From: Patescibacteria group bacterium
GTDB lineage: Bacteria > Patescibacteriota > Minisyncoccia > UBA6257 > 2-01-FULL-56-20
Direction of reading: 5' to 3'
Length of the DNA stretch: 61,237 bases
Assembly (NCBI GenBank): GCA_038063755.1
Contig: JBBTUL010000001.1
Coordinates: 1 to 61,237, forward strand
Shown: positions 926 to 54,087 of the stretch, piece after piece
Numbering within the stretch: the stretch's first letter is position 1
Layout of the letters: each line of letters starts with the position of its first letter
Notes under the pieces: model-generated
Told to the model about the DNA's origin: nothing
Database searches by the model: none
Seen by the model: the letters and a program-made list of their open reading frames with translations, nothing else
Made by a program: the position numbers and the translations under genes

Positions 926-932
926 GATCGTT

Positions 933-1328
933 TTATTTCAAAACACCACGCTTCTGAAACTCCGGGTACAATTTTCCGGCGAGGGCATCGTGGAAAGCAT
1001 CGAGCACGAAAGGATTCGACTTCATCGCCATCTCGTTTGCCTTTCCGATCCCTTGATGGATTGCGAGATCAACCAGGTACTCTATTTCAAGCTTCACCTC
1101 AGAAGAAGCGCTCGTAGCATACGCGGGAATCTGGCTCTTCTGTGAATCGTCTCGAGGAATGGTCTGGATGGGTGCTTGGGCAACCGCCCGAATCGCAAGT
1201 CTTAAAAGATCTTGCTCGCTCGACGCCCTTATTTCGGGATTTTCTCGATGTCCCGCAATTTCAGCCGCAAGACGGTTCATGTCCGCCTCAAGCGCAGCGT
1301 GCTCAAATTGTGGTACTTGATCTGGCAT
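933..1328 (-). CDS. Hypothetical protein (131 aa), probably coupled to the downstream ATPase gene
   Basis: Clean ORF ending 7 nt before the next ATG; helical charged composition. Confidence 0.8.
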   Translation of the reverse strand: MPDQVPQFEHAALEADMNRLAAEIAGHRENPEIRASSEQDLLRLAIRAVAQAPIQTIPRDDSQKSQIPAYATSASSEVKLEIEYLVDLAIHQGIGKANEMAMKSNPFVLDAFHDALAGKLYPEFQKRGVLK

Positions 1329-1359
1329 AAAAAAATACGAATTACGTTATACTAAGTGT

Positions 1360-2832
1360 ATGTGGAAAAAATATATTCCAATCTTCACCGTCCTCATTAT
1401 AGCAGTCTTCTTTCGCACCTACCATCTGAAAACTCTTCCGCCCGGCCTCTATCCCGATGAAGCAATGAATGGATCGAATGGACTTACGGCGATTCATACG
1501 GGAGACTTCAAGGTCTTCTATCCAGAAAATAACGGACGGGAAGGTCTTTTCATCAACCTTCAAGCGCTCCTTGTAAAATGGAGCGGCGTTCGAGAGCCCT
1601 GGGTCTTGAGATCAGTAAGTTCGCTCTTCGGCATTTTGACCGTTCTTGGAATGTATTTTCTTGGAAAAGAGCTTTTTTCAAAACGCATCGGCCTCCTCGC
1701 ATCCTTCCTGCTTGCGACAAACTTTTTGCATATAAATTTTTCGCGTATCGGCTTTAGAGCGATCATGGCTCCGGCATTCGCTGTGTGGGGACTCTACTTT
1801 TTTATCAGAGCACTGCGGCAGGACAGAACACGCCCCGCATCAATTCTCGCCATTCTTGCGGGCGCTGTCTTCGGACTAGGACTCCATTCATATATCGCCT
1901 ATCGAGTTATGCCGGCGCTTATCGTGCTTGTGACAGCTTACTTTCTCGTTTTTGAAAAAAATCGTCGCGTAGAAACTCTGAAAAAGACGGCGCTCTTTAT
2001 AGTCGCCGCGCTTATAGTTTTCGCTCCTCTCGGAATGTATTTCTTGGAAAATCCAGGAGACTTCTTCGGACGAACATCGCAAGTGTCAGTATTCTCATCC
2101 ACATCCCCGCTTGCAGGGCTCGGATTAAACATCGCAAAAACTCTTGGCATGTTTAATGTTATTGGAGACTATAATTGGCGCCACAACATCTCCGGAAAAC
2201 CCGAACTTTACCTGCCAGTCGGGCTGCTCTTCCTTGCCGGAATTGTTCTTGCTATAAAGAAATTTTTTAAGAAATCTTCTTGGAGTGCCGGCCAAGTGCT
2301 TCCCGTTGGCATCCTGCTCTCTTGGTTCGGACTCGCAATGCTCCCTGTCATCATATCGAACGAAGGACTTCCCCATGCGCTTCGAGCAATACTCATGTTG
2401 CCGCCGGTAATGTTCTTTTCGGCGCTCGGGGGCAACGCTCTCTTTGATCTCTTCCTCTCGAAAGTAAAAGAACCATCGAAAGAACTTTGGTCTCGTCGAA
2501 TCATCTCCTTTTTTGCCGCGCTTATCCTTGCGAATGCATATGTTAGCTACTTCATCGTGTGGGGAAAGAATCCCGAGGTCCAAAACGCCTTTGCGGCAAA
2601 CTACACCGCCATCGCCCGAAAATTAAATTCACTTCCAAGAGAGGTTCCTAAGTATGTCGTCGTCGAAGCGGGCGGGGTTCTGGTGAATGGGATCCCCATG
2701 CCATCCCAGCCGATTATGTTTATGACTGACACGTTTCGCAAGGAAGAACAAACAGAAAAAAATATTTTTTACGTGCTTCCGGAAAAAAGAAATGCTATTC
2801 CAGATAATGCATCGGTATTCGTCATAGATTAA
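1360..2832 (+). CDS. Glycosyltransferase family 39 (PMT/ArnT-like) multi-pass membrane protein
   Basis: PPGLYPDEA motif, many TM segments, GT-C architecture. Confidence 0.85.
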   Translation: MWKKYIPIFTVLIIAVFFRTYHLKTLPPGLYPDEAMNGSNGLTAIHTGDFKVFYPENNGREGLFINLQALLVKWSGVREPWVLRSVSSLFGILTVLGMYFLGKELFSKRIGLLASFLLATNFLHINFSRIGFRAIMAPAFAVWGLYFFIRALRQDRTRPASILAILAGAVFGLGLHSYIAYRVMPALIVLVTAYFLVFEKNRRVETLKKTALFIVAALIVFAPLGMYFLENPGDFFGRTSQVSVFSSTSPLAGLGLNIAKTLGMFNVIGDYNWRHNISGKPELYLPVGLLFLAGIVLAIKKFFKKSSWSAGQVLPVGILLSWFGLAMLPVIISNEGLPHALRAILMLPPVMFFSALGGNALFDLFLSKVKEPSKELWSRRIISFFAALILANAYVSYFIVWGKNPEVQNAFAANYTAIARKLNSLPREVPKYVVVEAGGVLVNGIPMPSQPIMFMTDTFRKEEQTEKNIFYVLPEKRNAIPDNASVFVID

Positions 2833-2860
2833 ACATGAGCCCATTCGGGGCTCATGTTTA
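2830..2860. terminator. Perfect 13-bp inverted repeat between convergent genes, probable bidirectional terminator
   Basis: TAAACATGAGCCC-attcg-GGGCTCATGTTTA; the arm ends are the two stop codons. Confidence 0.75.
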
Positions 2861-3169
2861 TACTTGTGCTATTTCGACTTCGGTAAATTGCTGCCTGTGT
2901 CCTTTCTTTTTTCGATATCTTGCTTTCGCATGATATTTGAACACTATCTTCTTCTTCGCTCTTCCTTGAGAAAGCACTTTCCCTACCACCCTTACGCCCG
3001 GAACGTGCGGCGTTCCAACCGTCACAGCGTCTCCGTTCGCGGTAAGCAAAACATTCTCAAAAATGACCTCTGATCCAGGCTCGCCGGGAAGTTTTTCAAT
3101 CTTGATTTTCGAGCCCTGTGAAACACGATACTGCTTTCCGCCAGTCTCAATGATTGCGAATGTCGCCAT
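2858..3169 (-). CDS. rplU: 50S ribosomal protein L21
   Basis: FAIIETGGKQYRV and KKGHRQQFT motifs. Confidence 0.98.
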   Translation of the reverse strand: MATFAIIETGGKQYRVSQGSKIKIEKLPGEPGSEVIFENVLLTANGDAVTVGTPHVPGVRVVGKVLSQGRAKKKIVFKYHAKARYRKKKGHRQQFTEVEIAQV

Positions 3170-3178
3170 GGGATTATC

Positions 3179-3526
3179 TTAATTGACACTAATAATAGCT
3201 GCAAACCCGAGGAAAAGCAAGGTGCCGAGAAAGAATGACCAGACGGCGGCAAGATTGGCAAGAAACAAAGCTCTTTTCTCCAGAGTATTCGCCACGAGGA
3301 GGTTTATCGAAAGCATGACGAGACCAAAAACGCCAAAAAGCTCAAGCTCGATAAGTGATCCAATTTTTGTGATGCCATCATAGTTGTTGAATTGAAGAAT
3401 GATCGGAGACACTGTGGAACGAAAAGAGGCATAAGCCCAGGCCATTCCGAGAATAACGAGGAGGAAGCTCATTCCAAAAAAGATATTGCGCCATCCGATA
3501 TGGCGATATGGTAGCACTATACTCAT
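3179..3526 (-). CDS. Hypothetical membrane protein (3 TM)
   Basis: Three hydrophobic segments; tightly packed between galT and rplU. Confidence 0.8.
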   Translation of the reverse strand: MSIVLPYRHIGWRNIFFGMSFLLVILGMAWAYASFRSTVSPIILQFNNYDGITKIGSLIELELFGVFGLVMLSINLLVANTLEKRALFLANLAAVWSFFLGTLLFLGFAAIISVN

Positions 3527-3528
3527 AC

Positions 3529-4509
3529 CTATTTTAAGATGCGCGCGAGTTCTTCGGGAGGAACGACATTAATATCAACGCCGGTACCTAGCTCAAATCC
3601 TCCCTCTTGGGCCATCTTCGGAATCACTTCAACGTGCCAGTGGTAATGCGAATGGCTTTTTTGATTTTTAAGGGGGGCTGTGTGGATGAAAAAATTATAG
3701 TCTGGGTCGTTTAAGTTCTTCTCGATTTTCTTCAATACTCGCTGAAGCAGTTCAGCAACCGCGCGAAGCGGTTTCTCGTCAGTCTCCTCAAAAAAAGCGT
3801 AGTGCTTCTTTGGGAAAATACGTATCTTGTATGGATGTCTTGAGGCAAACGGCGCGAACGCAATCGCGTCCTTGTTCTCTGCGATGATACTTTTTCCTCC
3901 CTTCCTTTCGTGCTTGATAATATCGCAATGCGCGCATCTTCGCTTCTTGGTGAAATATTCATGAGATCCCCTTAGCGAATGCGAAACCTCGGGCGGTACG
4001 ATCGGAAGCGCGAGTAGTTGGTAGTGCGGATGGTAGAGAGACGCGCCGGCGCTTGCTCCCCAATTGGAGAACGCCGAAACATAAGTAAGGCACTTGTCTT
4101 TTTTTATACCGCGATAACGCTCCTGGAAAATAAGGAATATTCGCAAAGCCTCGCTAAGCGAAAGTCTTGAAAAATTATTTTCGTGATCTCGCGTGACCAC
4201 GAGATCGTGATATCCGATACCCGGCATGGTTTCGTAGGGACCAAGATTTATGGACTTTACGCAAACATTGCTGTGTCGAAGTGCCGGATATTTATTCGGA
4301 ATAAGCACCACGCGCCAGCTTTCTCTGTTCGGATAAGCAATGATTGGCGGCCAATTTCCCGTCTTTTCGAGGTCCTCAAACGGGCACGTTTTTTTCGGCG
4401 TTGGCCTTCGCCTGCTTTTTCCGTCAGAAAATCCGTGAGGGCGTCCTGCCCTCTCTGGCGCAACAACGATCCAATCTCCCGAAACCGGATCCTTTCGAAA
4501 CTCTGCCAT
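3529..4509 (-). CDS. galT: Galactose-1-phosphate uridylyltransferase (HIT superfamily)
   Basis: EFRKDPVSGDW, CPFE, PNKYP and the catalytic GASLYHPHYQ (HxHxQ) motif. Start placed at the second Met. Confidence 0.92.
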   Translation of the reverse strand: MAEFRKDPVSGDWIVVAPERAGRPHGFSDGKSRRRPTPKKTCPFEDLEKTGNWPPIIAYPNRESWRVVLIPNKYPALRHSNVCVKSINLGPYETMPGIGYHDLVVTRDHENNFSRLSLSEALRIFLIFQERYRGIKKDKCLTYVSAFSNWGASAGASLYHPHYQLLALPIVPPEVSHSLRGSHEYFTKKRRCAHCDIIKHERKGGKSIIAENKDAIAFAPFASRHPYKIRIFPKKHYAFFEETDEKPLRAVAELLQRVLKKIEKNLNDPDYNFFIHTAPLKNQKSHSHYHWHVEVIPKMAQEGGFELGTGVDINVVPPEELARILK

Positions 4510-4553
4510 GTATTTAGTATCGCTCATCCTTCAGGGCAAAACAAGGCGTAAAA

Positions 4554-4572
4554 AAACACCTTTTGGGTGTTT
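4554..4572 (-). terminator. Short intrinsic-terminator-like hairpin after the 101-aa ORF
   Basis: AAACACC/GGTGTTT stem followed by a T-run on the minus strand. Confidence 0.5.
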
Positions 4573-4876
4573 ATATGAACTGGCTTTCTTCTCCTCCAAA
4601 AAACTCACGGACGAATTGCGAAAACAGATCGCTATCCTCATAGGCAGCCCTCCGCAACCCCCGGACAACTACATTCGGAACCAAGCCTCCGGAAAGCTCG
4701 ACTTCGTTCGTAATTACTCCAAATCTCACGCTCCGACTCGTGGAATAGAAAAGATCTCCCACAATGCTTCTGCGCAGAACTGAGCGAGGTTTAAATATAA
4801 GCCCTGAGTCCTTCCCGAGGTAGTAGTAAAACCTGTTTACCAAAATCTCGCTTGGAAGATTTGGCAAATTCTTCAC
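4571..4876 (-). CDS. Hypothetical protein (101 aa, GTG start)
   Basis: Fills the mrdA-galT gap and is followed by a hairpin; no recognisable motif. Confidence 0.5.
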   Translation of the reverse strand: MKNLPNLPSEILVNRFYYYLGKDSGLIFKPRSVLRRSIVGDLFYSTSRSVRFGVITNEVELSGGLVPNVVVRGLRRAAYEDSDLFSQFVREFFGGEESQFI

Positions 4877-4927
4877 CTCTTTTTTCCGTTGTGCTAGGAA
4901 AATAGAAGCACAAACAAGGCCTAAGTG

Positions 4928-6796
4928 TCAAGATTTTTTAATGCGGTTTTCGTAGTACCAAGCGAATACATCCTTTGCCACAGGAACAGCATTCAGGCTT
5001 CCTTGTTTCGAATTTTCGACAAGAATCAAGATTGCAACTTCTGGGTTTTCATATGGTGCATAACCGACGAAGAACGCGTTTTCTTTTTTGTTATTCTCTA
5101 TCTGCGCACTTCCGGTTTTCCCTGCAACCGGAAACGGCAGATCACTTAAAACTCTCGCCGTTCCAAGGGGAGAAGTAACTGTCCTCCTCATTCCAATCTG
5201 AACTTCTCCGATTTCCTCTGCAAACGCAGACAGGTCCCTTCTTACCTCAGGGCTTGAGTCGCTTTTTTTCAGGATCGGTCTAAAAACCTTCCCTCCGTTT
5301 GCAATCGCGCCAACGTAACTTAAAAGCTGTATGGGCGTCACCAAGAGATCTCCCTGTCCGATTGAAACGTTGTAGGTATCCCCCAAAAGCCATGAATGCT
5401 TTGTGGTTTTTTCCTTCCATTCCGGTGAGGGCAAAAAACCAGCCGCCTCTCCTGGAAAATCAATTCCTGTTTTCTCGCCAAGACCAAACTTCTCCCACCA
5501 CTCTCGCAGGCGCTTGATACCAAGCCCTTTTTGCGAACCAGCTCCTCCGCCGACGGTATAGAAGTACACATTTGATGATTGCGCTATCGCTGCGGCAAGA
5601 TTTACATTGCCCTGATATCGCCAATCCGCATACCTGGTCGGCTTATCGGGCGCATATGGATTCGGTATCTCAAGGTATCCAGGAGAAAAAATTTCCGTTG
5701 CAGGACTCATCACCCTCTCCGCAAGGGCAGCAACCGCAACCATCGGTTTAATCGTTGACCCCGGATTATATACTCCCGCGACAGCCCGATTAAAAAGAGG
5801 TTTGGAAGATGCGGTAAGTATCTCTTTTTTTTCTTCGCGATGTCCTGGGCGAGAAAGAACGTTGTTATCATACGAAGGAAGATTTATGAAAGCTAACACT
5901 TCGCCGCTCCTTGGATCGATTGCGAGTCCAACGCCCGAAATGCGCCCGAGGCTGTCAAGGCCTGCCTTTAGGCGATGTGCGAAATACGACTGAAATCCTG
6001 CATCAATCGTAAGCGCAAGCGTTTGCCCTACCTGCGGAGAGGCTTCTTTCATGGGGGCGACTACCTCTCCTTTCGCGTTTCTGGCTTTAACTCGACTACC
6101 GGCTTCGCCTCGCAGAAAATCATCGTAAAAAGCCTCGATCCCAGCCTTCCCGATAAGATCCTGGCTCGTGATCGCGTCTTCTTTGTCCTGGAGCTCCTTT
6201 TTGGTCGGGAAGCCAACGTATCCGAGAATCGAAGAAAATGCTGCCGGGTCTTTGTATTCCCGATCTGCTGCCTGAACAACCGAAAGCGTCGGGAGGTCAA
6301 GTGCCTTCAGTCTGATTGTTTTCTCTTGCGCAAGGTCAGTCGCAAGAGTGATAGAGTCGATACCCCCTCTCTCTTCCGCTTCGTTTAGCGCATCATCAAA
6401 GTCTGCTTTTGTGATTCCCGCGATATCAGCAAGTACGCGCTCCGTTTCCCGTTGCATGCTCTCGTCGCGCAAAAAAGGACCCACATGCAAAACCAGAGAA
6501 AACGAAGGCTTGTTCTCCACAAGCGGAACATGGAATCTGTCTTCGATCACGCCGCGCGGGGCAGGAATGTGTTCTACCGCGTTTAGATTCCGAAACGCCC
6601 TCCGCTCGTACATTCCGTCGGCGGCATATCCCAAAAGAAAAACTCTTCCGGCGATAAGCAGTCCAAAAAATATAATCAGCCCACCGACAAAAATGGCGGG
6701 GGCTCTGTCGAGGGGAACTTCTTTCACGTCGAGATCACGAGACCAGTCCTCGCTTAATGCATCTTCAAAACCAAGATCACGATTTGCGGCACTCAT
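4928..6796 (-). CDS. mrdA: Penicillin-binding protein 2 (class B transpeptidase)
   Basis: PGSTIK (SxxK), SSN (SxN), GKTGSAQ (KTG) motifs; next to mreBCD. Confidence 0.95.
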   Translation of the reverse strand: MSAANRDLGFEDALSEDWSRDLDVKEVPLDRAPAIFVGGLIIFFGLLIAGRVFLLGYAADGMYERRAFRNLNAVEHIPAPRGVIEDRFHVPLVENKPSFSLVLHVGPFLRDESMQRETERVLADIAGITKADFDDALNEAEERGGIDSITLATDLAQEKTIRLKALDLPTLSVVQAADREYKDPAAFSSILGYVGFPTKKELQDKEDAITSQDLIGKAGIEAFYDDFLRGEAGSRVKARNAKGEVVAPMKEASPQVGQTLALTIDAGFQSYFAHRLKAGLDSLGRISGVGLAIDPRSGEVLAFINLPSYDNNVLSRPGHREEKKEILTASSKPLFNRAVAGVYNPGSTIKPMVAVAALAERVMSPATEIFSPGYLEIPNPYAPDKPTRYADWRYQGNVNLAAAIAQSSNVYFYTVGGGAGSQKGLGIKRLREWWEKFGLGEKTGIDFPGEAAGFLPSPEWKEKTTKHSWLLGDTYNVSIGQGDLLVTPIQLLSYVGAIANGGKVFRPILKKSDSSPEVRRDLSAFAEEIGEVQIGMRRTVTSPLGTARVLSDLPFPVAGKTGSAQIENNKKENAFFVGYAPYENPEVAILILVENSKQGSLNAVPVAKDVFAWYYENRIKKS

Positions 6797-6834
6797 TGCT
6801 ATACATTATCCCCAAAGAAGCCCTTCGGGCAAGA

Positions 6835-7296
6835 CTATCTTTCAAGCCACAGCGAAGCGTCTCGCCTTCCCCATATAGCCTCTCCCGCGTACATCACAAA
6901 CATCCCGAAAAGAAAGTTCATGCCGGCAAGCAGAAAAAGTGTTTGAAATTCAGAGTATGCCTCCCGCGGCGCAGTAATTGCGTAAAATGCAAACGTCGAT
7001 ACTGCCAACACTACGAGCATGAACGACCGACCTGGTCTCCGGAAAAGTCTCGCCGCAATCGGAAAAAGCATAAAAACTATCCAAGAGGTTTCAAGGGGGG
7101 TCGAGAAGAGAAAAAAGAAACCGGAAAATCCGGTAACGAGGACGACCTCCAGCAAAGACAGCTGCGGAATAATTGCCAACAAAAAAAGAAGGGAGAAATC
7201 GGGAGACAACCCGAAATATAGCCGAATCTTCATTTCGACGACGGCAAATACCGCGACAGAAGCGAAAAGTGAAATCAGTCTCGCGAATCTTTTCAT
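6835..7296 (-). CDS. MreD-like membrane protein
   Basis: Hydrophobic 153 aa ORF in the mreD position between mreC and mrdA; call rests on synteny. Confidence 0.6.
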   Translation of the reverse strand: MKRFARLISLFASVAVFAVVEMKIRLYFGLSPDFSLLFLLAIIPQLSLLEVVLVTGFSGFFFLFSTPLETSWIVFMLFPIAARLFRRPGRSFMLVVLAVSTFAFYAITAPREAYSEFQTLFLLAGMNFLFGMFVMYAGEAIWGRRDASLWLER

Positions 7297-10248: not shown

Positions 10249-10350
10249 TGAAATTACGATATCATAAATATTTTTCTTCGGCCACTCGAAAGCCCTGGTG
10301 CTGAAGGGTAATTACCGCGACGCTCATGCCGAAACTTGTATAATTGTCTT

Positions 10351-28451: not shown

Positions 28452-30692
28452 ATGGAAGCACTCGATACGCGCTACAACCAAAACGAAGAACCTGATATTT
28501 ACGATCTATGGGAAAAATCAGGAATCTTTACTCCGGAAACATCCAAGAAACGGGGAATAACCGATGCGGAAGCTCCGCCTTTTGTCGTGGTGCTACCCCC
28601 TCCAAATGTGACCGGAACCCTTCATATCGGACATGCATTTGAAGACACCGTCCAAGATATTTTCGTTCGCTACCATCGCATGCTCGGAGAGCCAACACTT
28701 TGGATTCCAGGTACCGATCATGCCGCAATAGCCACTCAAGCAAAAGTTGAGAAAATACTCAGCAAAGAAGAAGGGAAATCGAAATACGATCTCGGACGAG
28801 ATGAATTCTTAAAACGCGTAAACGCGTTTGCAAAAGAAAGTCACGACACCATTACGCGGCAAATCCGCCGCCTTGGAGCGTCGCTTGACTGGAGTCGTGA
28901 AGCTTACACGCTCGATGAAAAACGAAATCTTGCGGTCCGAACCGCCTTTAAGCGAATGTACGATCTCGGCCTTATTTATCGAGCTGATCGCATCGTAAAC
29001 TGGGACCCAAAAGGGCAGACAGTAATTTCGGATGACGAAGTGGTCTATGAAGAGCGCCCTGCAAAACTTTACACCTTCCGCTATTCCAAAGACTTCCCTA
29101 TCTCCATCTCAACCACTAGACCAGAGACGAAAGTCGGAGACACCGCGGTTGCGGTTCATCCCGAAGACCAACGATACAAGAAATTTGTTGGAAAAATATA
29201 CGAAGCGAATTTTTGCGGAGCTCAGATCAAGGTGAAGATCGTCGCCGACTCCTCTGTCGAAAAGGATTTCGGCACCGGAGCACTCGGCGTTACTCCCGCG
29301 CACAGCATGATCGACTGGGAAATAGCATCTCGACACGACCTTCCATTGGTGCAGGTGATAGATGAATATGGAAAAATGATGGTGGAAGATGTGCGCTTAA
29401 AAGGAAAGAAGACAATCGAAGCGAGAGAAGTAATCGTGGCATGGCTGAAAAACGAGGGCCTTCTCGAAAAGGAAGAGGACGTCACGCAAAATGTTTCGAC
29501 ATCAGAACGAACGGGAGCCGTAATAGAACCGCTTCCGAAACTTCAGTGGTTCATTGGCGTGAACAAAGAATTTGTCCTTGAGCACTCAAGCATCCACGGC
29601 ATTCCTTCGGGGTCAAAAACAACGCTCAAAGAAATCATGAGGAAGTCAGTCTCTGAAAAACAAATAAAGATTCTCCCAGAGAGATTTGAAAAGGTTTACT
29701 TCCATTGGATAGACAATCTTCGCGACTGGTGTATTTCGCGACAGCTTTGGTTCGGACATCGCATTCCCGTCTGGTACCGTTCGACTGACGCTCACGGCAA
29801 GCCGAACGGTATCCCGAGCGATAGTCGAGGGGTCGAAACTTATGTGAACGTCGAGCCACCGAAGGGCTCGGATTGGGAACAGGACTCCGACACGCTTGAT
29901 ACCTGGTTTTCTTCCGGCATGTGGACTTTTTCGACCCTGGGATGGCCCGAGAAAACAGAAGACCTTAAGCGGTACCACCCAAACGCGTTCATGTGTCCGG
30001 GGTACGAAATTATCTTCATGTGGGTCGCCCGTATGATTTTGATGAGCGGATGCCTTTTGGGGGAGATCCCTTTTCGTACCGTTCTCTTCCACGGCATCGT
30101 CCGCGACTCGCAAGGAAGAAAGTTCAGCAAATCCATCGGAAATGGTATTGACCCTTTGGAGCTCGCGAATACCTATGGTGCCGATGCGCTACGCATGGCG
30201 CTCGTGATCGGTGCTGCGCCGGGAAACGATGTAACATTTAGCGAAGATAGGGTTCGGGGATACAGGAACTTTTCGACAAAGATATGGAACCTCGCCAGAT
30301 TCCTGCGCATGAATTCGCGACCTGAGTTCTCGCACGGCAACCACAAATTCGACGAAGGCGACAGAGCGACGCTTCAGGAGTTCGAAGCCGTTAAGAAGGC
30401 GGTGACCAACCACATTGAGAACTTCGACCTGCACCTCGCCGCAGAAGGCCTATACCACTACGTCTGGCACACGTTCGCCGACAAGGTGGTCGAAGAGGCA
30501 AAGCCGCGCCTCCAGGGAGATGATTCTGAAAAAGCTCACAGAGCCTACCACCTTCTCGATCACATTCTTGTCGATTGCTTAAAGATGCTGCATCCATTCA
30601 TGCCATTTGTAACGGAAGCTGTATATCGAAAATCTCACCCGAATGATCTTTTGACAGAAGAACGCTGGCCATATATTCCCCACGTCGAGTAG
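28452..30692 (+). CDS. valS: Valyl-tRNA synthetase, short (no C-terminal coiled coil), with a 17-aa repeat-derived insert
   Basis: PPPNVTGTLHIGH; DWCISRQLWFGHRIP; DTWFSS; KFSKS. Confidence 0.96.
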   Translation: MEALDTRYNQNEEPDIYDLWEKSGIFTPETSKKRGITDAEAPPFVVVLPPPNVTGTLHIGHAFEDTVQDIFVRYHRMLGEPTLWIPGTDHAAIATQAKVEKILSKEEGKSKYDLGRDEFLKRVNAFAKESHDTITRQIRRLGASLDWSREAYTLDEKRNLAVRTAFKRMYDLGLIYRADRIVNWDPKGQTVISDDEVVYEERPAKLYTFRYSKDFPISISTTRPETKVGDTAVAVHPEDQRYKKFVGKIYEANFCGAQIKVKIVADSSVEKDFGTGALGVTPAHSMIDWEIASRHDLPLVQVIDEYGKMMVEDVRLKGKKTIEAREVIVAWLKNEGLLEKEEDVTQNVSTSERTGAVIEPLPKLQWFIGVNKEFVLEHSSIHGIPSGSKTTLKEIMRKSVSEKQIKILPERFEKVYFHWIDNLRDWCISRQLWFGHRIPVWYRSTDAHGKPNGIPSDSRGVETYVNVEPPKGSDWEQDSDTLDTWFSSGMWTFSTLGWPEKTEDLKRYHPNAFMCPGYEIIFMWVARMILMSGCLLGEIPFRTVLFHGIVRDSQGRKFSKSIGNGIDPLELANTYGADALRMALVIGAAPGNDVTFSEDRVRGYRNFSTKIWNLARFLRMNSRPEFSHGNHKFDEGDRATLQEFEAVKKAVTNHIENFDLHLAAEGLYHYVWHTFADKVVEEAKPRLQGDDSEKAHRAYHLLDHILVDCLKMLHPFMPFVTEAVYRKSHPNDLLTEERWPYIPHVE

Positions 30693-32950: not shown

Positions 32951-33392
32951 TCTCGCTGGGAATCGAACAAGCGGAAGGGGTCGGGGAACCGCGACCGGTT
33001 CCCCGTGTCGGAGGTTATTCGGAACCGAGGGTTTCGAAAAGCGATTCTGAGTTTTCCGAAGAATCGCGGGTGAGATAGCGAAGCGTCCCGGCGGCCCGAC
33101 ATTAGAAGTTGGATTATCGAGCAAAGCGAGATTAACAACTCTTATGTCCCGACTCCGGTCGGGACTAGAGAAAGTCTTCGAGCAAAGCGAGTTAGAGTTT
33201 CTTGTGTCCCGTCTGAGCGAAGCGACAGCGGGACAGTAGAATCTTCGAGCGAAGCGTCCCGGCGGCCCGACATTAGACTGTGTTGAGCGGAGCGCTTACA
33301 GAATCTTATGCCCCGTCGGCAGGCGGGGCGGTAGCGATCTTAGTGAGCAAAGCGAGCTTTAGAATTTCTTATGCCCCGACAGACGTCGGGGC
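32951..33392. repeat. Cluster of tRNA-derived and REP-like palindromic repeats
   Basis: 30-bp exact direct repeat (33077-33106, 33248-33277), six GAGC(A/G)(A/G)AGCG motifs, four TCTT(A/G)TG(T/C)CCC-hairpin units. Confidence 0.85.
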
Positions 33393-33700
33393 TTTCAAGA
33401 GTCCTCTATCTCCACAATAGCCCATAGGGCGAAGGCGGGACGGCTCCAGTTTTCTAAACCAGAGAAAGAATAAAAAGAAACAAAAAACCCGACGCTGGGT
33501 CGGGGTCTTTGTCCTCTCGTCTGAGATGATCCCGGCCAAGTGCCAGGTGGGTGGGCTCGTCTTCTGCCCCAAGGGGCGGAAGAAATTTGCCCTCCCTGAT
33601 CAGATTATTTGATCCGGAATCTCAAGAACGAGATTACCTAAAGTATACCATGTGCAAGAAAAAATGAGGATAAAATCAAAAAACAAGATATAATGAATAC

Positions 33701-40634: not shown

Positions 40635-40733
40635 TTAAGCAAAACGAAGCGAAATCCTGAGCGTATCGAAGGGCTCGGGTTCGATAAGAAACTGATTTTT
40701 ACAATTTTGACACTGACGGTTCTCTTGGTTCAT
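40635..40733 (-). pseudogene. Truncated 5' remnant of a third zinc-ribbon paralog
   Basis: MNQENRQCQNCKNQFLIEP is identical to the start of paralog 2; it then runs into a repeat and stops at 32 aa. Confidence 0.85.
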
Positions 40734-42570: not shown

Positions 42571-42727
42571 GTTTTTTATCCCGCCCATAGGCGGGATCCT
42601 CGATTTTGTTTATTCGCTTCGCTCATACAAAATCGGGACAGCTTTGACACGCTTGTCCCTGGTGGGGTCGAGGGGAGCTTGTCGAAGAAATTCTGGCCTC
42701 AGGCATCATCCCGTAATTCTAATCCAA

Positions 42728-44384: not shown

Positions 44385-45053
44385 TCAGACAGATTCATGA
44401 AAGCTCTTCCCTACAGCTCCCCAATCGACGATATTCCACCAGTTTTCTATATACTCCGCGCGGCGGTTTTGATACTTCAGATAATAGGCGTGTTCCCAAA
44501 CATCAAGCGCCAAAACCGGTTTCTTGCCCTGCGACAGGGGCGTATCCTGATTCGGGGTTGTAAGGATCTCAAGGCCAAGTCCTTCGGCGGGGCTCCCCTC
44601 GGCTCTGCTCGGGACAGGCAGGACAATTCCTTCGGGGTTACTCAGGACAAGCCACGTCCAACCGCTACCGAATACTTTAAGCGCGGAGTCCGTAAACGCT
44701 TTCTTGAAATCCGCAAACGACCCGTACGCACCCGCGACCGCAGTTGCAAGCTCGCCCTGCGGCTCGCTTACACCCCCCGCAGGCGCAAGAAGCGTCCAAA
44801 AAAGCGAGTGGTTCAGGTGTCCCCCGCCGTGGTTCTTTACCGCGCCGCGAATGTCCTCGGGAACGGCATCCAAATTCTTCAAAAGTTCCTCAAGCGGGGT
44901 CTCCGCTATTTCGGGGTGCTTTGCGAGAGCCTCGTTCAGCTTATCGACATAGGCCTGGTGGTGCTTTGCGTGGTGCAACTCCATCGTTCGCGCATCGATG
45001 AATGGCTCAAGCGCATCGTATCCGTACGGCAGTTTCGGCAGTTCGTATTTCAT
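44385..45053 (-). CDS. sodA: Fe/Mn superoxide dismutase with a 23-aa repeat-derived insert
   Basis: [10 protein letters not shown]; [13 protein letters not shown]; DVWEHAYY. Confidence 0.96.
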
Positions 45054-45119: not shown

Positions 45120-45515
45120 CTACTCGAAATATGGCGGCCACATCCACGACGAGACTACTTTTGCCGAAAAACGCGGGAATGCTTCCTTGCACCTTTTCAC
45201 CTGCTCTCTGAAACGCGACTGAAACTCGTACGAAAGCGCCATGTGGACGTTTTTGATCGCACTGAGATGCGGACCACCCACACCAGGATTCCAATAATCG
45301 CATGCCTCACAGATCAAAACCACTCGGCACCTTGCGACTTCGTCAACGCTCTGACGGGCAACGAGCCTCTTTTTGCACGTCGGGCACGAGAAGAACAGCC
45401 CCTCTTCATCTCCGACAACCTTCATTGAGGTGCTATCTTGCCCCGCAAGATTGAGGGTCAAATGAAATCGTCCTTTCGCCGGATCGAAAAACGCGCGAAC
45501 GGTGCTCTCAACCAT
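45120..45515 (-). CDS. Hypothetical protein with two CxxC motifs (Zn ribbon)
   Basis: CPTC and CEAC; GGAGG 6 nt upstream of ATG. Confidence 0.65.
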   Translation of the reverse strand: MVESTVRAFFDPAKGRFHLTLNLAGQDSTSMKVVGDEEGLFFSCPTCKKRLVARQSVDEVARCRVVLICEACDYWNPGVGGPHLSAIKNVHMALSYEFQSRFREQVKRCKEAFPRFSAKVVSSWMWPPYFE

Positions 45516-47268: not shown

Positions 47269-50200
47269 TTATGCTTGATGCTCTTGGACTACGTCGTCAG
47301 ACATACCTGGCGCGGCTTCGGTTATTTCGGGAACTTTATACCCCGATCCGGCAGGAATCAATCTTCCGATGATGACATTCTCCTTGAGTCCACGCAGCGT
47401 GTCAACCCTCCCTTCAATCGCGGCCCCTACCAGTACGCGCGATGTATCTTGGAATGATGCTGCGGAAAGGAAGCTCTCTGTGGTAAGCGCAACACGGGTA
47501 ATTCCCATAAGCAACTGTCTTGCCTTTGCGGGAGTCTTGCCGTCTTTCTTGAGCGCGCGATTCAATTCCAGAAACTTTGATTTTTCGAGAACTTCTCCCA
47601 TAACTATTTCGCCCGCATCTCCGGCGTGCGTCACGCGGACACGCGAGAACATCTGCCGAACAATAACTTCGATGTGCTTGTCGTGGATCGCAGCTCCTTC
47701 GGCCATATAGATTCTCTGCACTTCGCCGATGATATGCCTCATAACCTCGTGGCTTCCTCTGAACTGCAAAAGTTCTTTTAGGTCAATGCTTCCTTCCGAG
47801 AGCTGATCACCAGCCTTCACCTTGTCGCCAGTTTTTACGAGCGTAAGAACCGAGCGAGGAATAGGATATTCGATCTGCTTCACGTCGCCCTTCTTCGCCT
47901 TTGTTCCTGGTGCTGGCTTCTTCGTTTTTGTTCGCTTTCGAAGCTCCCCTTCAACGCGAACAACGATCACCTTGAATGATTCGCGCTCCTCAACTGCCTC
48001 CACGACCCCATCGGAAGCTGAAAGTACGGCCTTTCCTTTTGGAGGACGAGCTTCGAAAAGCTCTTCGATACGAGGAAGACCGTGCGTAATATCAAGTCCG
48101 GCGACTCCTCCGGTATGGAACGTTCTCATGGTGAGCTGTGTCCCTGGCTCTCCGATTGACTGCGCGGCAATAACGCCAACTGCCGAACCGATCGAAACCG
48201 CCTGATTCATTCCGAGGTCAAATCCGTAACATTTTCCACATAAGCCAAAAAGCGTTTTACAGGCAAGCGGAGAACGAACGGCAATAGAATCAACACCTGA
48301 AGCGTCGACAATCTCCGCGGTTCTCTTATCAACAATTTCTCCCGCTTTCACAAGCGTTTTTCGGCCATCCTTTACGTCTTCAATAACCGATCGCGCGAAG
48401 AGACGCGTACCGAATGATTGTCCGAATGCCCTTCCGTCGTTTCGATTAATCGTAACGCCTTCTTTTGTCCGGCAATCGTCCTCTCGAATAATGATGTCTT
48501 GGGCCACATCAACCAAGCGCCGAGTCAAATACCCTGCTTGCGCGGTTTTGAGCGCCGTATCCGTCGTTCCTTTGCGAGCGCCGTGAGTCGAGATGAAATA
48601 TTCGATAACCGAGAGACCTTCTTTATATGAAGCCTTGATCGGAAGTTCCATGGTTTCACCCTTTGGGTTCGAAACGAGTCCCTTCATGCCCATCATCTGG
48701 GACGGCTGAGACCATGATCCACGCGCGTTCGAATCGACAATCTGATAGACCGGATTATCTTTCTTGAGGGCGCTTAAAACAAGCTTGTCGATTTGGCTCT
48801 TCACGCGCATCCAAACCTCGATCACTCGTGCGCGACGCTCGCCTTCGGTAAGTAAACCGTCATTGAACTGTTCGTGGATGGCATCGATTTCCTTCTCCGC
48901 GCTCTTTACGATACCCTCCTTCTCTTTCGGGGTAACGAGGTCCGATATCGCCCAGGTGATGCCTGATTTTGTTGCCATCTCGAATCCAAGAAGTTTAACG
49001 TTGTCTAAAATCTGTCGCGCTCGCTCTAGGCCGCGCATATCAAATATCTGCTCGATGACCTTCGCGATTTTCTTCTTGTTCAATGTTTCTCCGACGAATG
49101 GAAGCGTCCCTTCAAGTGAGCGGTTCAAGATGAACCTGCCAAACGTTGAGGTTCTGTCTTCGATAATAATTTCTTCGTGAAGCTTGATCACCTTGTTTTC
49201 GTAAGCCATCAAAGCCTCGTTGTAATCAACAAATACTTTCTTCTTTTTCTTGGGATCAATTTCCGCTTCCGGTCGTGTGAGATAATAGATACCAAGAACC
49301 GCGTCCTGCGTAAGTCCCGTAATGAGATCGCCGGTCGCCGGCTTCAAAAGGTTTCTTCCTGCCGACATTATCTCTGCAGCCTCCCATTGCGCGGCGCGGG
49401 AAAGCGGAACGTGTACGGCCATCTGGTCTCCGTCGAAATCGGCGTTAAAAGCCGCGCAAACAAGCGGAGGAATTTGGATTGCAAGGCCTTCAACCAAGAG
49501 CGGTCGGAATGCCTGTACGGAGAGTCTGTGCAAAGTCGGCGCGCGGTTTAGAAGCACTTTTTTATCTCGAATTACGTCTTCAAGAATCGCCCAGATCTCA
49601 TCGCTCCCCTGCTCAATCATGCGATTCGCGATTTTAATGTTGTGCACCAGGCCGCGGTTAATCATCTCTCCGATCACAAATGGACGGAAAAGCTCAAGTG
49701 CCATTTTCTTCGGCAACCCGCATTCGTCGAGACGAAGACGCGGACCAACCACGATTACGGAACGTCCGGAATAGTCAACGCGCTTTCCAAGTAGGTTTTG
49801 GCGGAAACGGCCCTGCTTGCCTTTTAACATATCAGCGAGCGAGCGAAGTGGTCTCCGCTGAGCGGAAAGCTGCTGCGTACCAAAGCGGGCTGAGTTATCT
49901 ATAAGAGCATCAACGGCCTCCTGAAGCATGCGCTTCTCATTTCGAACGATGATTTCCGGAGCTTTGATCTCGAGAAGTTTCTTTAGGCGGTTGTTGCGGT
50001 TTAAGACGCGGCGATAGAGATCATTCAAGTCTGAAGTCGCGTAACGTCCGCCGTCCAAGGCAACCATCGGACGAAGATCCGGAGGGAGCACAGGGAGAAG
50101 CTTCATGATGAGCCACTCGGGACGAGTATTATTCCTCACCATCGCCTTTATAATCTTCAATCTCCGGAGGAGCTTTATTTCGGTTGTTGGGTCTTTCATT

Positions 50201-53200
50201 TCCGAAATCTCCTTTTCCATCGCGGCGACCTCCTTCTTTAGGTTGAGATTCTCAAGAATCGTTTGGATCGCTTCGGCTCCGCTTCCCGCCTTGAAAACCG
50301 TGCTGAATCTGCGAGAGAGCGAAACATATTCGTCTTCACGCAAAATGGTCCCTGGATGAAGTTCCTCGAGTAAATCTTTTACGCGATTCGCACCATCCAA
50401 AAGTTCGCGAGTCGCTTCTTTGCTGTCTGATCCGATAGCCTTAAGCTTTCCCTTGAGCTCCGAGTCAACTTCTTTCATGACGGCCTTTCTGCTTTCGTCA
50501 TCAACTTCGGTCACAATATAGTCGACGTAGTAGATAACTCGTTCGAGCTTCGATGACTGAACGTTCAAAAGCAAAGAGAGTGGCGATGGCGCGCTCTTAA
50601 AGAACCAGATGTGCGTCACTGGCGTAGCAAGCGTAATATGACCAAGTCGCTCGCGGCGCACAACCGAACGGGTTACTTCAACACCGCACTTATCGCAAAC
50701 CACTCCCTTGTAGCGAATTTTTCGATATTTACCACAGTAGCACTCGTAGTCTTTTGTTGGACCGAAAATACGTTCACTAAAAAGTCCGTCTTTTTCCGGT
50801 CTCTGCGTTCGATAGTTAATTGTTTCCGGTTTTATAACTTCTCCATGCGACCAACGCAAGACGTCATCTGGAGAGGCAACGCCAATGCGTAAGCTCGAAA
50901 AATCTTTTGGAGCCTCTGCTTCGGTGAGCGGATTTCCTGCTTTCGTAATGGGTTCGATGTTGAGTCCCAATGACTTCAACTCGCTTACGAGCACGTTAAA
51001 CGATGCCGGAATGTTCGGTTCTTTAATCTCCTCTCCTCGAATAATCGCTTCGTATGCCGCTGACCGCCCCAACACGTCGTCGGATTTAATTGTAAGCATC
51101 TCCTGGAGCACGTGTCGTGCGCCATAGCCCTCAAGCGCCCAGACTTCCATTTCTCCGAAGCGCTGTCCTCCAAACTGCGCCTTTCCTCCAAGCGGCTGCT
51201 GCGTGATTAAGGAGTACGGACCAATGGAACGCATGTGCACCTTATCTTCTACAAGATGGTTCAGCTTCATCATGTAGATTTGTCCGACCATGACGCGGTC
51301 ATGAAACGGCTCTCCCGTTCGGCCATCGTAGAGCATTACCTTTCCGTCTGCAGGAAGATTCGCTTTTTTAAGCTCCTCCCAAATTTGCGCCTCGCTCACT
51401 GAATCAAACGATGGAGTGATTGCTCTATATCCAAGTTTTTCGGCGGCCCAGCCCAAATGCGTCTCAAGAATTTGGCCAAGATTCATACGAGAAACGACGC
51501 CTAATGGGTTTAAAATAATGTCAACGGGAGTGCCATCCGCAAGATGCGGCATGTCCTCCACGGGGCGAACCTGGGAAATGACACCCTTGTTTCCATGGCG
51601 GCCCGCAAGCTTGTCTCCAGCTTGCACCTTCCTGAGGCTCGCGACTTCAATCTGAATTCGTTTAATAATTCCTGCTTCAAGCTTATCTCCCTCGTCGCGC
51701 GAAAAGATTTTCACCCCCACGACGCGCCCGCGCTTTCCGTGCGGCAACGTAAGAGATGTATCTTTTACATCGCGAGCCTTCTCTCCAAAAATGGCGCGAA
51801 GCAAGCGCTCTTCGGCCGTAAGCTCCGCTTCGCCTCGCGGAGAAATTTTTCCAACAAGAATATCTCCCGCATGAACCTCGGCGCCAATACGCACGATTCC
51901 TTCCTCATCAAGATTCTTGAGTTTTTCCTCGGAAACGTTCGGAATATCCGGAGTCATAATTTCCGGCCCAAGCTTCGTGTCTCGAACGTCGCAGTAAAAG
52001 TCTTCTATGTGAATGGAAGTAAACAAATCTTCTCTCGCTACTCGCTCGGAAAGGATAATGGCATCTTCAAAGTTTGCTCCTTCCCACGACATAAACGACA
52101 CAAGAAGATTCTGTCCGAGCGCGAGCACTCCGCGATCAACCGAGGAGCCGTTTGCGATAATATCTCCCTTCTTAACCTTCTGTCCTTTTGTAACGAGCGG
52201 ATCTTGCGAAATGGCGCTGAATTGGTTGGAACGCTTGAACTTTACAAGATTGTATTCCTTCGTGGTTCCTTTGGCATATTTTACGGTTATTTTGCTCGAA
52301 TCAACCTGGGTCACCACGCCTTCCCCTTCTGCCGCAATAACATATCCCGAATCTCTTGCAACCTTTTCTTCCTCTCCGGTCCCAACGTAAGGAGCGCTCG
52401 GACGGATTGACGGCACCGCTTGGCGCTGCATGTTTGAACCCATGAGTGCGCGGTTTGCATCGTCATGCTGTAAGAATGGAATAAGCGATGTCGCAACGGA
52501 AACGAATTGATGCGGAGCCACTTCCATAAGATCAATGTCCCCTACGGGGCAGGTGCTCGGCTCACCTCCGATGCGGGATTCCACAACCGTTCCTAAAATC
52601 TTTCCTTTCGCATCGCGCTCAACGGCCCCGTTTGCGATTTTATATTTTTCTTCCTCAAGCGCATCAAGCCAAACAATTTCATCAGTCGCTCTTCCACTTT
52701 TAACTTTTACGTACGGAGTTTCAAGAAAACCAAAATCGTTTACTCGGGCGAAGCTCGCAAGATAGTTGATAAGACCGATGTTCGATCCTTCCGGCGTCTC
52801 GATCGGACAGATGCGTCCGTAGTGAGAGCGGTGAACGTCACGCACTTCGAAGCTTGCGCGCTCGCGCGTAAGACCTCCGGGACCGAGTGCCGAAAGACGC
52901 CTCTTATGCTCAAGTTCGGCTAAAGGATTTACCTGGTCCATGAACTGCGAAAGCTGTGAAGAAGCAAAAAACTCTTTAATAACTGCTGCAATCGGGCGGA
53001 AATTGATGAGCTGTGCCGGAGCGAGTGCATCGCGATCAAGCGTTGACATTCTATCCTGTACAATACGGCGAAGCCGTGCAACACCAACGCGAAGCCTTCC
53101 CTCAAGCAATTCTCCGACCGCCTTCACGCGGCGATTTCCCAAGTGGTCAATGTCATCCGATATGGCACTCGACGTATTGTTGAGCCTGATAATTTCACGG

Positions 53201-54087
53201 ACCATTCCCAAAATATCCTCTTTGTCCAAAAGAGGTTCTTTTTTCTTCTCGGAAAGGCCAAGTCTACGATTTACCTTGAAACGACCTACTGCCGAAAGGT
53301 CATAGCGATCAAATCGATGAAAAATACCATCGATAAGGCTTTTTGCTGTTTCGGCGTTTGCAGGGTCGCCCGGGCGCAAGCGACGATAGATCTCTATATA
53401 TGACTCGTCGACATCCTTTGCGATGTCTTTTTTAAATGTTGCCTCAAGAAAATTTATCGGCCCGGTATCGATATCGAGGAGCTTTCTCCTCATCTCTTCT
53501 TCTCCGACTCCAAAGATACGAAGGAGGTCGGTCACGGGAACCTTTCGATGCCGATCGATTTTAACGCCGATTACTCCATCGATGTCTGTCTCGAATTCAA
53601 GCCATGATCCTCGGTTCGGAATAACCTTCGCACCGAAAAGTTTCTTCCCGCGAAAAGCGACTGCCGTGAAATATACTCCGGCAGAACGAACAAGCTGCGA
53701 AACGACAACGCGCTCAACGCCGTTTATAATGAAAGTTCCGCGATCGGTCATGACCGGGAAGTCGCCGAAATACACCTCCTGCTTTTCGGTGTGTCCTGTG
53801 TTTTTGTTCTTCAAGCGAATGCTCATATGAAGGGGTGCCTCATATGTCGCTTCTTTGTATCGGGATGTTACTTCGTCGTACTTCGGTTCGCCAAAAGAAT
53901 AATCATCGAAGTGAAGCTCGAGCTCGTTTCCGGTGTGATCATGAATCGGGGAAATTTCTTTTAATAATGTCTTGAGTCCTTCTTTTAAAAACCACTGATA
54001 GGACTTCAACTGCATCTCATTCAAGTTGTCGATGGAGAGAGCCGGCTTGAACCGCGAGAAGTCTTTCTTGGGAAGTGGGTGCGACAT
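47269..54087 (-). CDS. rpoBC: Fused RNA polymerase beta-beta' subunit (2272 aa)
   Basis: Beta motifs (SQFMDQ, GDKLAGRHGNKG, GQRFGEMEVWAL) continue without a stop into beta' motifs (CYCGK..CDKC, NADFDGD, GEPGTQLT). Confidence 0.95.
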   Translation of the reverse strand: MSHPLPKKDFSRFKPALSIDNLNEMQLKSYQWFLKEGLKTLLKEISPIHDHTGNELELHFDDYSFGEPKYDEVTSRYKEATYEAPLHMSIRLKNKNTGHTEKQEVYFGDFPVMTDRGTFIINGVERVVVSQLVRSAGVYFTAVAFRGKKLFGAKVIPNRGSWLEFETDIDGVIGVKIDRHRKVPVTDLLRIFGVGEEEMRRKLLDIDTGPINFLEATFKKDIAKDVDESYIEIYRRLRPGDPANAETAKSLIDGIFHRFDRYDLSAVGRFKVNRRLGLSEKKKEPLLDKEDILGMVREIIRLNNTSSAISDDIDHLGNRRVKAVGELLEGRLRVGVARLRRIVQDRMSTLDRDALAPAQLINFRPIAAVIKEFFASSQLSQFMDQVNPLAELEHKRRLSALGPGGLTRERASFEVRDVHRSHYGRICPIETPEGSNIGLINYLASFARVNDFGFLETPYVKVKSGRATDEIVWLDALEEEKYKIANGAVERDAKGKILGTVVESRIGGEPSTCPVGDIDLMEVAPHQFVSVATSLIPFLQHDDANRALMGSNMQRQAVPSIRPSAPYVGTGEEEKVARDSGYVIAAEGEGVVTQVDSSKITVKYAKGTTKEYNLVKFKRSNQFSAISQDPLVTKGQKVKKGDIIANGSSVDRGVLALGQNLLVSFMSWEGANFEDAIILSERVAREDLFTSIHIEDFYCDVRDTKLGPEIMTPDIPNVSEEKLKNLDEEGIVRIGAEVHAGDILVGKISPRGEAELTAEERLLRAIFGEKARDVKDTSLTLPHGKRGRVVGVKIFSRDEGDKLEAGIIKRIQIEVASLRKVQAGDKLAGRHGNKGVISQVRPVEDMPHLADGTPVDIILNPLGVVSRMNLGQILETHLGWAAEKLGYRAITPSFDSVSEAQIWEELKKANLPADGKVMLYDGRTGEPFHDRVMVGQIYMMKLNHLVEDKVHMRSIGPYSLITQQPLGGKAQFGGQRFGEMEVWALEGYGARHVLQEMLTIKSDDVLGRSAAYEAIIRGEEIKEPNIPASFNVLVSELKSLGLNIEPITKAGNPLTEAEAPKDFSSLRIGVASPDDVLRWSHGEVIKPETINYRTQRPEKDGLFSERIFGPTKDYECYCGKYRKIRYKGVVCDKCGVEVTRSVVRRERLGHITLATPVTHIWFFKSAPSPLSLLLNVQSSKLERVIYYVDYIVTEVDDESRKAVMKEVDSELKGKLKAIGSDSKEATRELLDGANRVKDLLEELHPGTILREDEYVSLSRRFSTVFKAGSGAEAIQTILENLNLKKEVAAMEKEISEMKDPTTEIKLLRRLKIIKAMVRNNTRPEWLIMKLLPVLPPDLRPMVALDGGRYATSDLNDLYRRVLNRNNRLKKLLEIKAPEIIVRNEKRMLQEAVDALIDNSARFGTQQLSAQRRPLRSLADMLKGKQGRFRQNLLGKRVDYSGRSVIVVGPRLRLDECGLPKKMALELFRPFVIGEMINRGLVHNIKIANRMIEQGSDEIWAILEDVIRDKKVLLNRAPTLHRLSVQAFRPLLVEGLAIQIPPLVCAAFNADFDGDQMAVHVPLSRAAQWEAAEIMSAGRNLLKPATGDLITGLTQDAVLGIYYLTRPEAEIDPKKKKKVFVDYNEALMAYENKVIKLHEEIIIEDRTSTFGRFILNRSLEGTLPFVGETLNKKKIAKVIEQIFDMRGLERARQILDNVKLLGFEMATKSGITWAISDLVTPKEKEGIVKSAEKEIDAIHEQFNDGLLTEGERRARVIEVWMRVKSQIDKLVLSALKKDNPVYQIVDSNARGSWSQPSQMMGMKGLVSNPKGETMELPIKASYKEGLSVIEYFISTHGARKGTTDTALKTAQAGYLTRRLVDVAQDIIIREDDCRTKEGVTINRNDGRAFGQSFGTRLFARSVIEDVKDGRKTLVKAGEIVDKRTAEIVDASGVDSIAVRSPLACKTLFGLCGKCYGFDLGMNQAVSIGSAVGVIAAQSIGEPGTQLTMRTFHTGGVAGLDITHGLPRIEELFEARPPKGKAVLSASDGVVEAVEERESFKVIVVRVEGELRKRTKTKKPAPGTKAKKGDVKQIEYPIPRSVLTLVKTGDKVKAGDQLSEGSIDLKELLQFRGSHEVMRHIIGEVQRIYMAEGAAIHDKHIEVIVRQMFSRVRVTHAGDAGEIVMGEVLEKSKFLELNRALKKDGKTPAKARQLLMGITRVALTTESFLSAASFQDTSRVLVGAAIEGRVDTLRGLKENVIIGRLIPAGSGYKVPEITEAAPGMSDDVVQEHQA

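Follow-up and report, generated by a model that had tools for sequence, protein, structure and literature searches.

A surface loop of a Patescibacteria superoxide dismutase is very probably made of a short, self-nesting DNA repeat

Results

The DNA analysed here, called the window throughout, is a 61,237-nt stretch from an ultra-small groundwater bacterium of the Patescibacteria group. On its minus strand, at 44385-45053, lies a gene for an Fe/Mn superoxide dismutase (SOD) of 222 aa, with its ATG at 45053. The ORF matches Fe/Mn SODs in the PDB (best E = 9e-79), contains both the N-terminal and the C-terminal domain of the family (PF00081 and PF02777), and retains the complete His/His/Asp/His set of metal ligands (H27, H82, D184, and H188), all of which fall in invariant columns of the homologue alignment. 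Its closest database homologues come from Patescibacteria (Ryan-, Lipton-, and Jorgensenbacteria, Paceibacterota). No exact match to the 222-aa protein is on record, and a scan of genome contigs with this protein returned mostly distant SODs and no closer orthologue. Two metagenomic loci, L084 and L001, are syntenic with this part of the window and share the order fused rpoB-rpoC, S6, SSB, S18, PAP2, SOD. The fused gene is a single ORF of 2272 aa in the window (47269-54087, minus strand); its L084 counterpart (297-7112) has both the Rpb2 (beta) and the Rpb1 (beta') Pfam domains, and thus rpoB and rpoC are fused. Between PAP2 and SOD the window also carries a 131-aa ORF with CxxC...CxxC motifs (45120-45515, minus strand). 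L001 and L084 have only a short spacer at this place, so the 131-aa ORF is a lineage-specific gene insertion.

When the SOD was compared with solved structures, each of the three PDB matches displayed by HMMER was split into two segments, residues 1-139/141 and residues 161-219/220, and therefore some 19-20 residues have no counterpart in those SODs. We measured the loop at this position, counted from GSGWxW to the P/A/S-x-Q-D/E (PNQD) motif, in 118 homologues. It has 13-14 residues in 89 of them and 32 in the window SOD, the third longest of the set, in agreement with the initial annotation, made from the letters of the window, which had stated that other Fe/Mn SODs have only a short turn here. 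That annotation had also proposed modelling the position of the loop. An AlphaFold2 model run with 120 homologues gave a confident fold (pLDDT 87, pTM 0.86) with strands at residues 131-137 and 161-167; residues 144-157 have a pLDDT below 50, and the insert is thus predicted to be a disordered extension at the tip of the beta1-beta2 hairpin. Through the extra DNA described below, this C-terminal-domain hairpin has grown to 32 residues, from the usual 13-14. The beta1-beta2 loop is enlarged in about one quarter of related Patescibacteria SODs, and the loop peptides of different SOD lineages are mutually unrelated.

Read on the minus strand, 44580-44648 consists of GTCCTGAGTAACCCCGAAGGA + ATT + GTCCTG + CCTGTCCCGAGCAGAGCCGAGGGG + AGCCCCGCCGAAGGA, a total of 69 nt or 23 codons (SOD residues 136-158), exactly as first described. 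The natural unit of this DNA is 24 nt, composed of a 9-nt left half and a 15-nt right half, and the full block is 72 nt long (44580-44651, minus strand), with three 24-nt modules that each begin at a codon boundary. It parses as CTTGTCCTG-AGTAACCCCGAAGGA followed by ATTGTCCTG {CCTGTCCCG-AGCAGAGCCGAGGGG} AGCCCCGCCGAAGGA, that is, a simple module A in tandem with a compound module C, between whose halves an inner module B, exactly CCTGTCCCGAGCAGAGCCGAGGGG, is nested. Module A (44628-44651, minus strand; unit profile E = 0.035) encodes LVLSNPEG, residues 135-142, and overlaps the conserved Leu codon of W-L. The left half of module C (44619-44627, minus strand) follows the family consensus gCcTGtCCtG and lies within the compound-profile match given below; its right half (44580-44594, minus strand) forms TCCT/AGGA pairs with the left one, and these covary among members of the family. 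Module B (44595-44618, minus strand; E = 6.5e-5) encodes PVPSRAEG, residues 146-153, and sits at CCTG^AG of module C. Modules A and C are identical at 17 of 21 positions. The GC content is 64% in the block and 75% in the inner unit, against 49% in the window. Among the three sense frames, only the one used by SOD is without a stop codon in the block, which together with the 24-nt length of the modules allows the block to be read through as about 19 extra residues.

The two syntenic loci differ at this site. L084, whose SOD is 74% identical, has an empty site with a 13-residue loop (TGG CTC GTA AAA GAC GGA GAA ACG CTC). L001, at 81% identity, has GTCCTGAGC-TCGCCGAAGGA and then ATTCATCCT, which amounts to one module and apparently the left half of another, 42 nt less than in the window. 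The alignment with relatives that had been suggested as a way to find empty alleles thus yielded one empty site and one partly filled site. Module A is common to the window SOD and L001 apart from a 1-nt indel, through which L001 reads the common DNA in another frame (SPKDSSS versus NPEGIVL). The nucleotides of the common module are as similar between L001 and the window as those in the rest of the gene, and, given the frame shift, it is the DNA that is conserved and not the peptide. In the simplest history, the array probably predates the split between the window and L001 lineages, and L001 then lost about 40 nt; alternatively, there may have been a gain in the window lineage. No relative with more than 90% identity and an empty site was found in the databases searched, where the closest relative is at 81%.

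We scanned metagenomes with the pattern TGTCCCGAG-N5-CCGAGGGGAG and obtained at least 120 loci. The inner 24-mer is present in at least 120 independent copies, with 120 unique contexts among the matches listed. Outside the fixed pattern, the flanks follow the consensus gCcTGtCCtG before the unit and AGCnnnGyCGAaGGg after it, and both outer halves (YCCYG ... AG-N6-CGARGG) surround the 24-mer in 66 of the 120 copies listed. When nesting depth was scored as (left, right) among these 120, 21 copies were 0,0, 50 were 1,1, and nine were 2,2; left and right depths agree, and the deepest array among the matches listed is nested to at least 5,4 (n = 1). A 48-nt compound profile, built from 36 metagenomic copies with the window left out, matches 44626-44581 over profile positions 2-47 with E = 6.8e-14, and 44580-44627 shows the complete family architecture, NYTGYCCYG plus AG-N6-CGARGGR with the inner unit at YG^AG of the outer. 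We had also considered GTCCTG as part of the 24-mer. This was ruled out, as the outer-plus-inner compound is the canonical architecture and the 24-mer inserts alone.

Intergenic tandem arrays of the family have a 24-nt period too, so that a length divisible by three is a property of the module and does not come only from coding selection. The earlier statement that every unit is a multiple of three stands for the 24-nt unit, and the block measures 72 rather than 69 nt. Copies occur in several phyla, namely Patescibacteria, Planctomycetota, and PKS-bearing high-GC bacteria, as judged from one named host lineage and from gene content. Some loci embed the repeat in larger structures. In L192 and L202 the 24-mer core lies at the tip of locus-specific complementary arms of 12 nt and 9 nt, respectively, and in L124, L129, and L136 the 48-nt compound forms the centre of a repeat of more than 120 nt that is present in several copies per contig and is flanked by ...GGAGGAGATCCCTCGCT... 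and ...CTCGCTCAGGATGACATTAAC....

The two halves of a module can pair, YCCY with RGGR, followed by tandem G.A pairs. Among depth-matched pairs of the Y in CCYG and the R in CGARGG, 57 are TA, 20 are CG, three are CA, and one is TG. A formal count found pairing in 99% of cells and a covariation score of 0.154 (versus 0.101 +/- 0.012), which none of 500 shuffles attained. Since the inner stem was held constant by the search pattern, this signal comes from just two variable pairs. The modules of the window conform to this rule, with T/A in A and C and C/G in B. The apex is GCGNAGC, with N free, in 64 of the 120 copies listed. The window apex, GCAGAGC, is off this consensus, and its variant, A at the second variable apex position, is common to 28 of the 120 copies listed. 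The sequence d(GCGNAGC) is the rule for an extraordinarily stable DNA mini-hairpin, the stability of which is missed by standard energy models (PMC13037366). ViennaRNA folding with DNA nearest-neighbour parameters gave no significant hairpin energy (z = -0.9 to +0.8), since tandem G.A pairs and mini-hairpins are poorly modelled.

A filled and an empty version of the same site were found in mutL of Planctomycetota (Sedimentisphaerales-like), where loci L144 and L210 are about 85% identical in nucleotides. Precisely 24 bases, reading as the reverse complement of CCTGTCCCGAGCGAAGCCGAGGGG, have been added to the filled site at TCG^AGC with no target duplication, and a relative at 81% protein identity is without exactly eight residues. 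Across the family, no target duplication of fixed length was detected (direct repeats in the flanks average 3.2-3.9 nt, compared with 2.6 nt in the control), and the base at position -1 of the unit is G in 116 of the 120 copies listed and in 18 of the 22 copies that have no outer half. Judged from these comparisons of sequence, the unit of insertion is the 24-mer alone. The nested parse first proposed for the SOD block, one unit interrupted by a related one, is thereby upheld by both the mutL pair and the 66 copies in which the same 24-mer lies between YCCYG and AG-N6-CGARGG.

Other copies are read through in real genes, mostly in inter-domain linkers, in several frames and in both orientations. 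One lies in a 2532-aa polyketide synthase (PKS), between the AT and ACP domains; the copy in MutL lies between its two C-terminal domains; and further copies lie in genes for MalT/LuxR-type regulators, BTAD-NB-ARC-type regulators, and a Wzy-TPR protein. The proposal that such repeats create new peptide loops is borne out by the empty site of L084 together with these linker copies in real genes of other phyla.

The loop could in principle have arisen in place, by slippage or tandem duplication of the native turn (VLSNPEG) and subsequent divergence, with no dispersed element. Three adjacent units that are as alike as A and C would be expected from such a process, as would a module A that is common to L001 and so predates the rest; there is also no second near-identical copy in sequencing run X1 (see below), and in one metagenome contig the 24-mer region has been doubled locally in tandem. 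However, slippage at a single site does not account for an inner 24-mer and a 48-nt compound with the same architecture in at least 120 unrelated contexts, for the match to a profile that excluded the window, or for the exact 24-nt insertion into mutL, an unrelated gene from a different phylum. Nor can it explain identical units at loci that have no relation to one another. The metagenomic copies are not fragments of SOD genes, as their flanks differ and host genes have been identified. We thus consider a purely local origin very unlikely. A mixed version, in which the first 21-mer is native and the rest is local slippage, was ruled out by the metagenome copies, the profile match, and the mutL pair.

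Family units also occupy the same codon position in at least five other Patescibacteria SOD genes (L001, L082, L083, L205, and L208). In L082 the loop unit is CCCTGAGCGAGCGAAGCGAGTCGAAGGG, read as LSERSESKG, and in L205 it is CCCTGAGCAAAGTCGAAGGG, read as LSKVEG. L083 has two intergenic copies within 1.4 kb in addition to its SOD-loop unit, and in L208 the outer halves enclose a different inner palindrome, CCTGGCCGGCCGGCAGG. The conserved SOD codons TGG CTT GYC (W-L-V/A) resemble the start of a left half, GCTTGYCCTG, and this likeness in sequence may help explain why the site has been hit repeatedly; a permissive hairpin tip may also be a sufficient explanation. In the Jorgensenbacteria SOD of L082, a second 24-nt unit in reverse orientation, CCTGCCCTGAGTCGCATCGAAGGG, lies at 10271-10294 in a variable loop of the N-terminal domain and is read as PFDATQG, so that family units are found in two loops of a single SOD gene. 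An insert of 13 aa, with a weaker resemblance to the family, occupies the same N-terminal-domain loop in L001.

By chance, 0.075 occurrences of TCCYGAG-N4-8-CGARGG would be expected in the window; it has four, of which two lie in the SOD gene, one in valS, and one in the intergenic region at 40655. The last of these is a simple unit, TCCTGAGCGTATCGAAGG (40655-40672, plus strand), which fits the motif and matches the profile weakly (unit E = 2). A degenerate compound copy, GCTTGTCCCTG GTGGGGTCGAGGGG AGCTTGTCGAAG, is also intergenic (42646-42687, plus strand; compound profile E = 0.016), and the same interval was detected as inverted repeat I6 against the SOD insert. In valS, a related motif, TCCCGAGCGATAGTCGAGGGG (29812-29832, plus strand), is in frame and read as IPSDSRG, with E = 0.56-0.82 and uncertain membership. 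There are only two to four copies of the family within the 61-kb window. The repeat family that the initial annotation had postulated is established by the intergenic copies in the window, at least five other SOD genes, and at least 120 metagenomic contexts.

The valS motif was tried as a second clean copy and rejected, because it belongs to a palindromic segment of 16 aa, STDAHGKPNGIPSDSRGV, that recurs nearly letter for letter in the ValRS of many Paceibacteria. An imperfect palindrome of 48 nt (29780-29832, plus strand) encodes this segment, which neither the closest relative (P0123, 81% identity) nor P0153 has. Its distribution is patchy, like that of an inserted element, yet the peptide is conserved. 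Elsewhere in the window, an intergenic array at 33070-33400 repeats about every 60 nt. It has GAGCRAAGCG motifs, each including the GCGAAGC mini-hairpin, in alternation with hairpins of the type GTCCCG...CGGGAC or GCCCCG...CGGGGC whose loops differ.

Contigs identical to the window span the insert without differences in five sequencing runs from two studies, and the SOD allele is identical in samples from 2021 and 2025. Run X1, which holds the whole stretch and is the best match to the source sample, contains only the SOD copy at 80% identity or above. The same groundwater metagenomes also contain contigs whose flanks are unrelated and which show two to six differences from 44580/44593-44626; one of these has two tandem copies. 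As X1 holds only the SOD copy, the close copies in these metagenomes belong to other organisms. A blastn-short search of the block against the collected loci gave no other close copy, a search of a plasmid collection gave no match, and viral contigs gave one chance-like match that lacks the family flanks. No empty allele was seen in eight runs of Logan contigs, which drop rare variants.

In runs X2 and X5, the insert lies between ends of Logan contigs, at 44581 and 44671. These ends could reflect low depth or a dropped population variant, and no alternative allele was recovered. The same breaks are what a chimeric contig or a collapsed repeat might leave behind, and the insert would then be an artefact of assembly or binning. 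Against this stand the identical contigs that cross the whole insert, an intact reading frame, and flanks that are colinear with the orthologues, and we regard an artefact as extremely improbable.

A fixed allele that is identical in samples of two studies, together with enlargement of the same loop in about a quarter of related Patescibacteria SODs, might instead point to a selected, lineage-specific extension of the enzyme, for example for partner binding or localisation, to which the likeness to a repeat is secondary. However, the loop peptides are unrelated between lineages, L001 reads the common DNA in a different frame, the extension is predicted to be disordered, and unrelated proteins include translations of this DNA in other frames and orientations. 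A selected extension is thus highly unlikely in our judgement.

Discussion

We conclude, with considerable confidence, that the enlarged SOD loop is a 72-nt mini-array of a dispersed, short, GC-rich, self-nesting DNA repeat family. The SOD block would have arisen by the same 24-nt insertion process that is recorded at mutL, and it would be tolerated as a disordered surface loop. We infer that the block is old, since it is off-consensus, is seemingly the only close copy in its genome, and is identical across the samples that span it. The extra loop is most likely neutral for the SOD enzyme, and thus an old passenger. The initial annotation had called the family active and self-inserting. Self-insertion is well founded; activity is not, given a single SOD copy in X1 and an allele that is the same in 2021 and 2025.

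How might such modules spread? New modules insert precisely at G^AG(C), with no target duplication. Since G^AG(C) is also the junction of the two halves in every module, insertion at this target explains the nesting. The process may act on single-stranded DNA hairpins, and two candidates can be considered. First, an HUH/RAYT-type enzyme could act in trans; a ssDNA hairpin substrate with no target duplication is reminiscent of such action on REPs. Second, template switching between copies could occur at stable hairpins. We consider these two routes about equally likely. A broader proposal is that the 24-nt module, a hairpin with a GCGNAGC cap, ranks among the smallest mobile DNAs, inserting precisely at G^AG(C), building nested arrays, spreading across phyla by a trans-acting ssDNA enzyme or by hairpin-driven copying, and remodelling the loops and linkers of housekeeping proteins. 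We offer this broader proposal tentatively, and it may well turn out to be wrong.

Several known systems resemble the family in part. REPs are extragenic, have a conserved 5' GTAG, and are accompanied by a RAYT (TnpA_REP) gene. REP, BIME, and REPIN elements and the 24-nt family all consist of short imperfect palindromes, 20-40 nt long, which are dispersed and in many cases form tandem or clustered arrays; neither REPs nor the 24-nt family makes a target-site duplication, and a ssDNA hairpin substrate is plausible for both. Unlike REP/REPIN elements, however, the 24-nt family has a consensus without GTAG, has copies inside genes, and inserts at G^AG(C), including the centre of the element itself. 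MITEs are defined by terminal inverted repeats and a target-site duplication of fixed length, and the absence of any duplication at mutL sets the family apart from them. The d(GCGNAGC) mini-hairpin fits the apex of the family's inner unit, but it is a structural motif rather than a repeat family or mobile element.

In behaviour the family resembles the Rickettsia palindromic elements (RPE-1 to RPE-10), described by Ogata et al. (2000) and summarised in PMC10969869. RPEs are about 100-150 bp long and confined to Rickettsia, and each of their families encodes a conserved peptide. Both RPEs and the 24-nt family are non-coding, hairpin-forming repeats found in intergenic regions and in housekeeping genes, and both are read in frame as extra surface segments that do not destroy the protein. 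In contrast to RPEs, the family has a 24-nt unit (72 nt for the whole block) and a Patescibacteria host, and is set apart by this size and host; it also nests within itself and occurs in several frames, both orientations, and several phyla. Thus the comparison with REPs and with Rickettsia elements drawn at the outset holds as a likeness of behaviour, not as membership of either family. Among the BoxC/PIT/TMECO intrastrand-triplex repeats, TMECO, with the consensus CCCTCNCCC-N3-6-GGGNGAGGG-N3-GGGNGAGGG, is reported to be always intergenic (Holder et al., 2015; PMC4666352). These triplex repeats share with the 24-nt family a short, GC-rich, strand-asymmetric make-up (a pyrimidine arm and a purine arm), a dispersed occurrence, conservation across bacteria, and a function that is unknown, but neither the window block nor the family consensus fits the TMECO consensus.

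No Rfam family was matched, apart from one CsrC match far below threshold. In the literature, we found no paper linking RPE-like elements or MITEs with Patescibacteria/CPR; family-specific sequence strings appeared in no paper, and shorter generic strings appeared only in unrelated ones. The 24-nt repeat family thus seems to be undescribed. To our knowledge, in-frame selfish repeats in essential genes are textbook knowledge only from Rickettsia. Here the same behaviour is seen with a far smaller unit and with its own grammar: two halves, insertion at its own centre, and no duplication. The GCGNAGC apex ties an oddity of DNA chemistry to a natural, genome-wide repeat, and the mutL pair supplies a defined substrate and target for an enzyme search. 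Low-complexity inserts such as PVPSxAEG, LPSASLGTG, and SPRLRSGQA are translated repeat DNA, which calls for caution in annotation and structure prediction. While the consequence for the SOD gene itself is modest, the family is a concrete source of variation in loop and linker length in the proteins of uncultivated bacteria.
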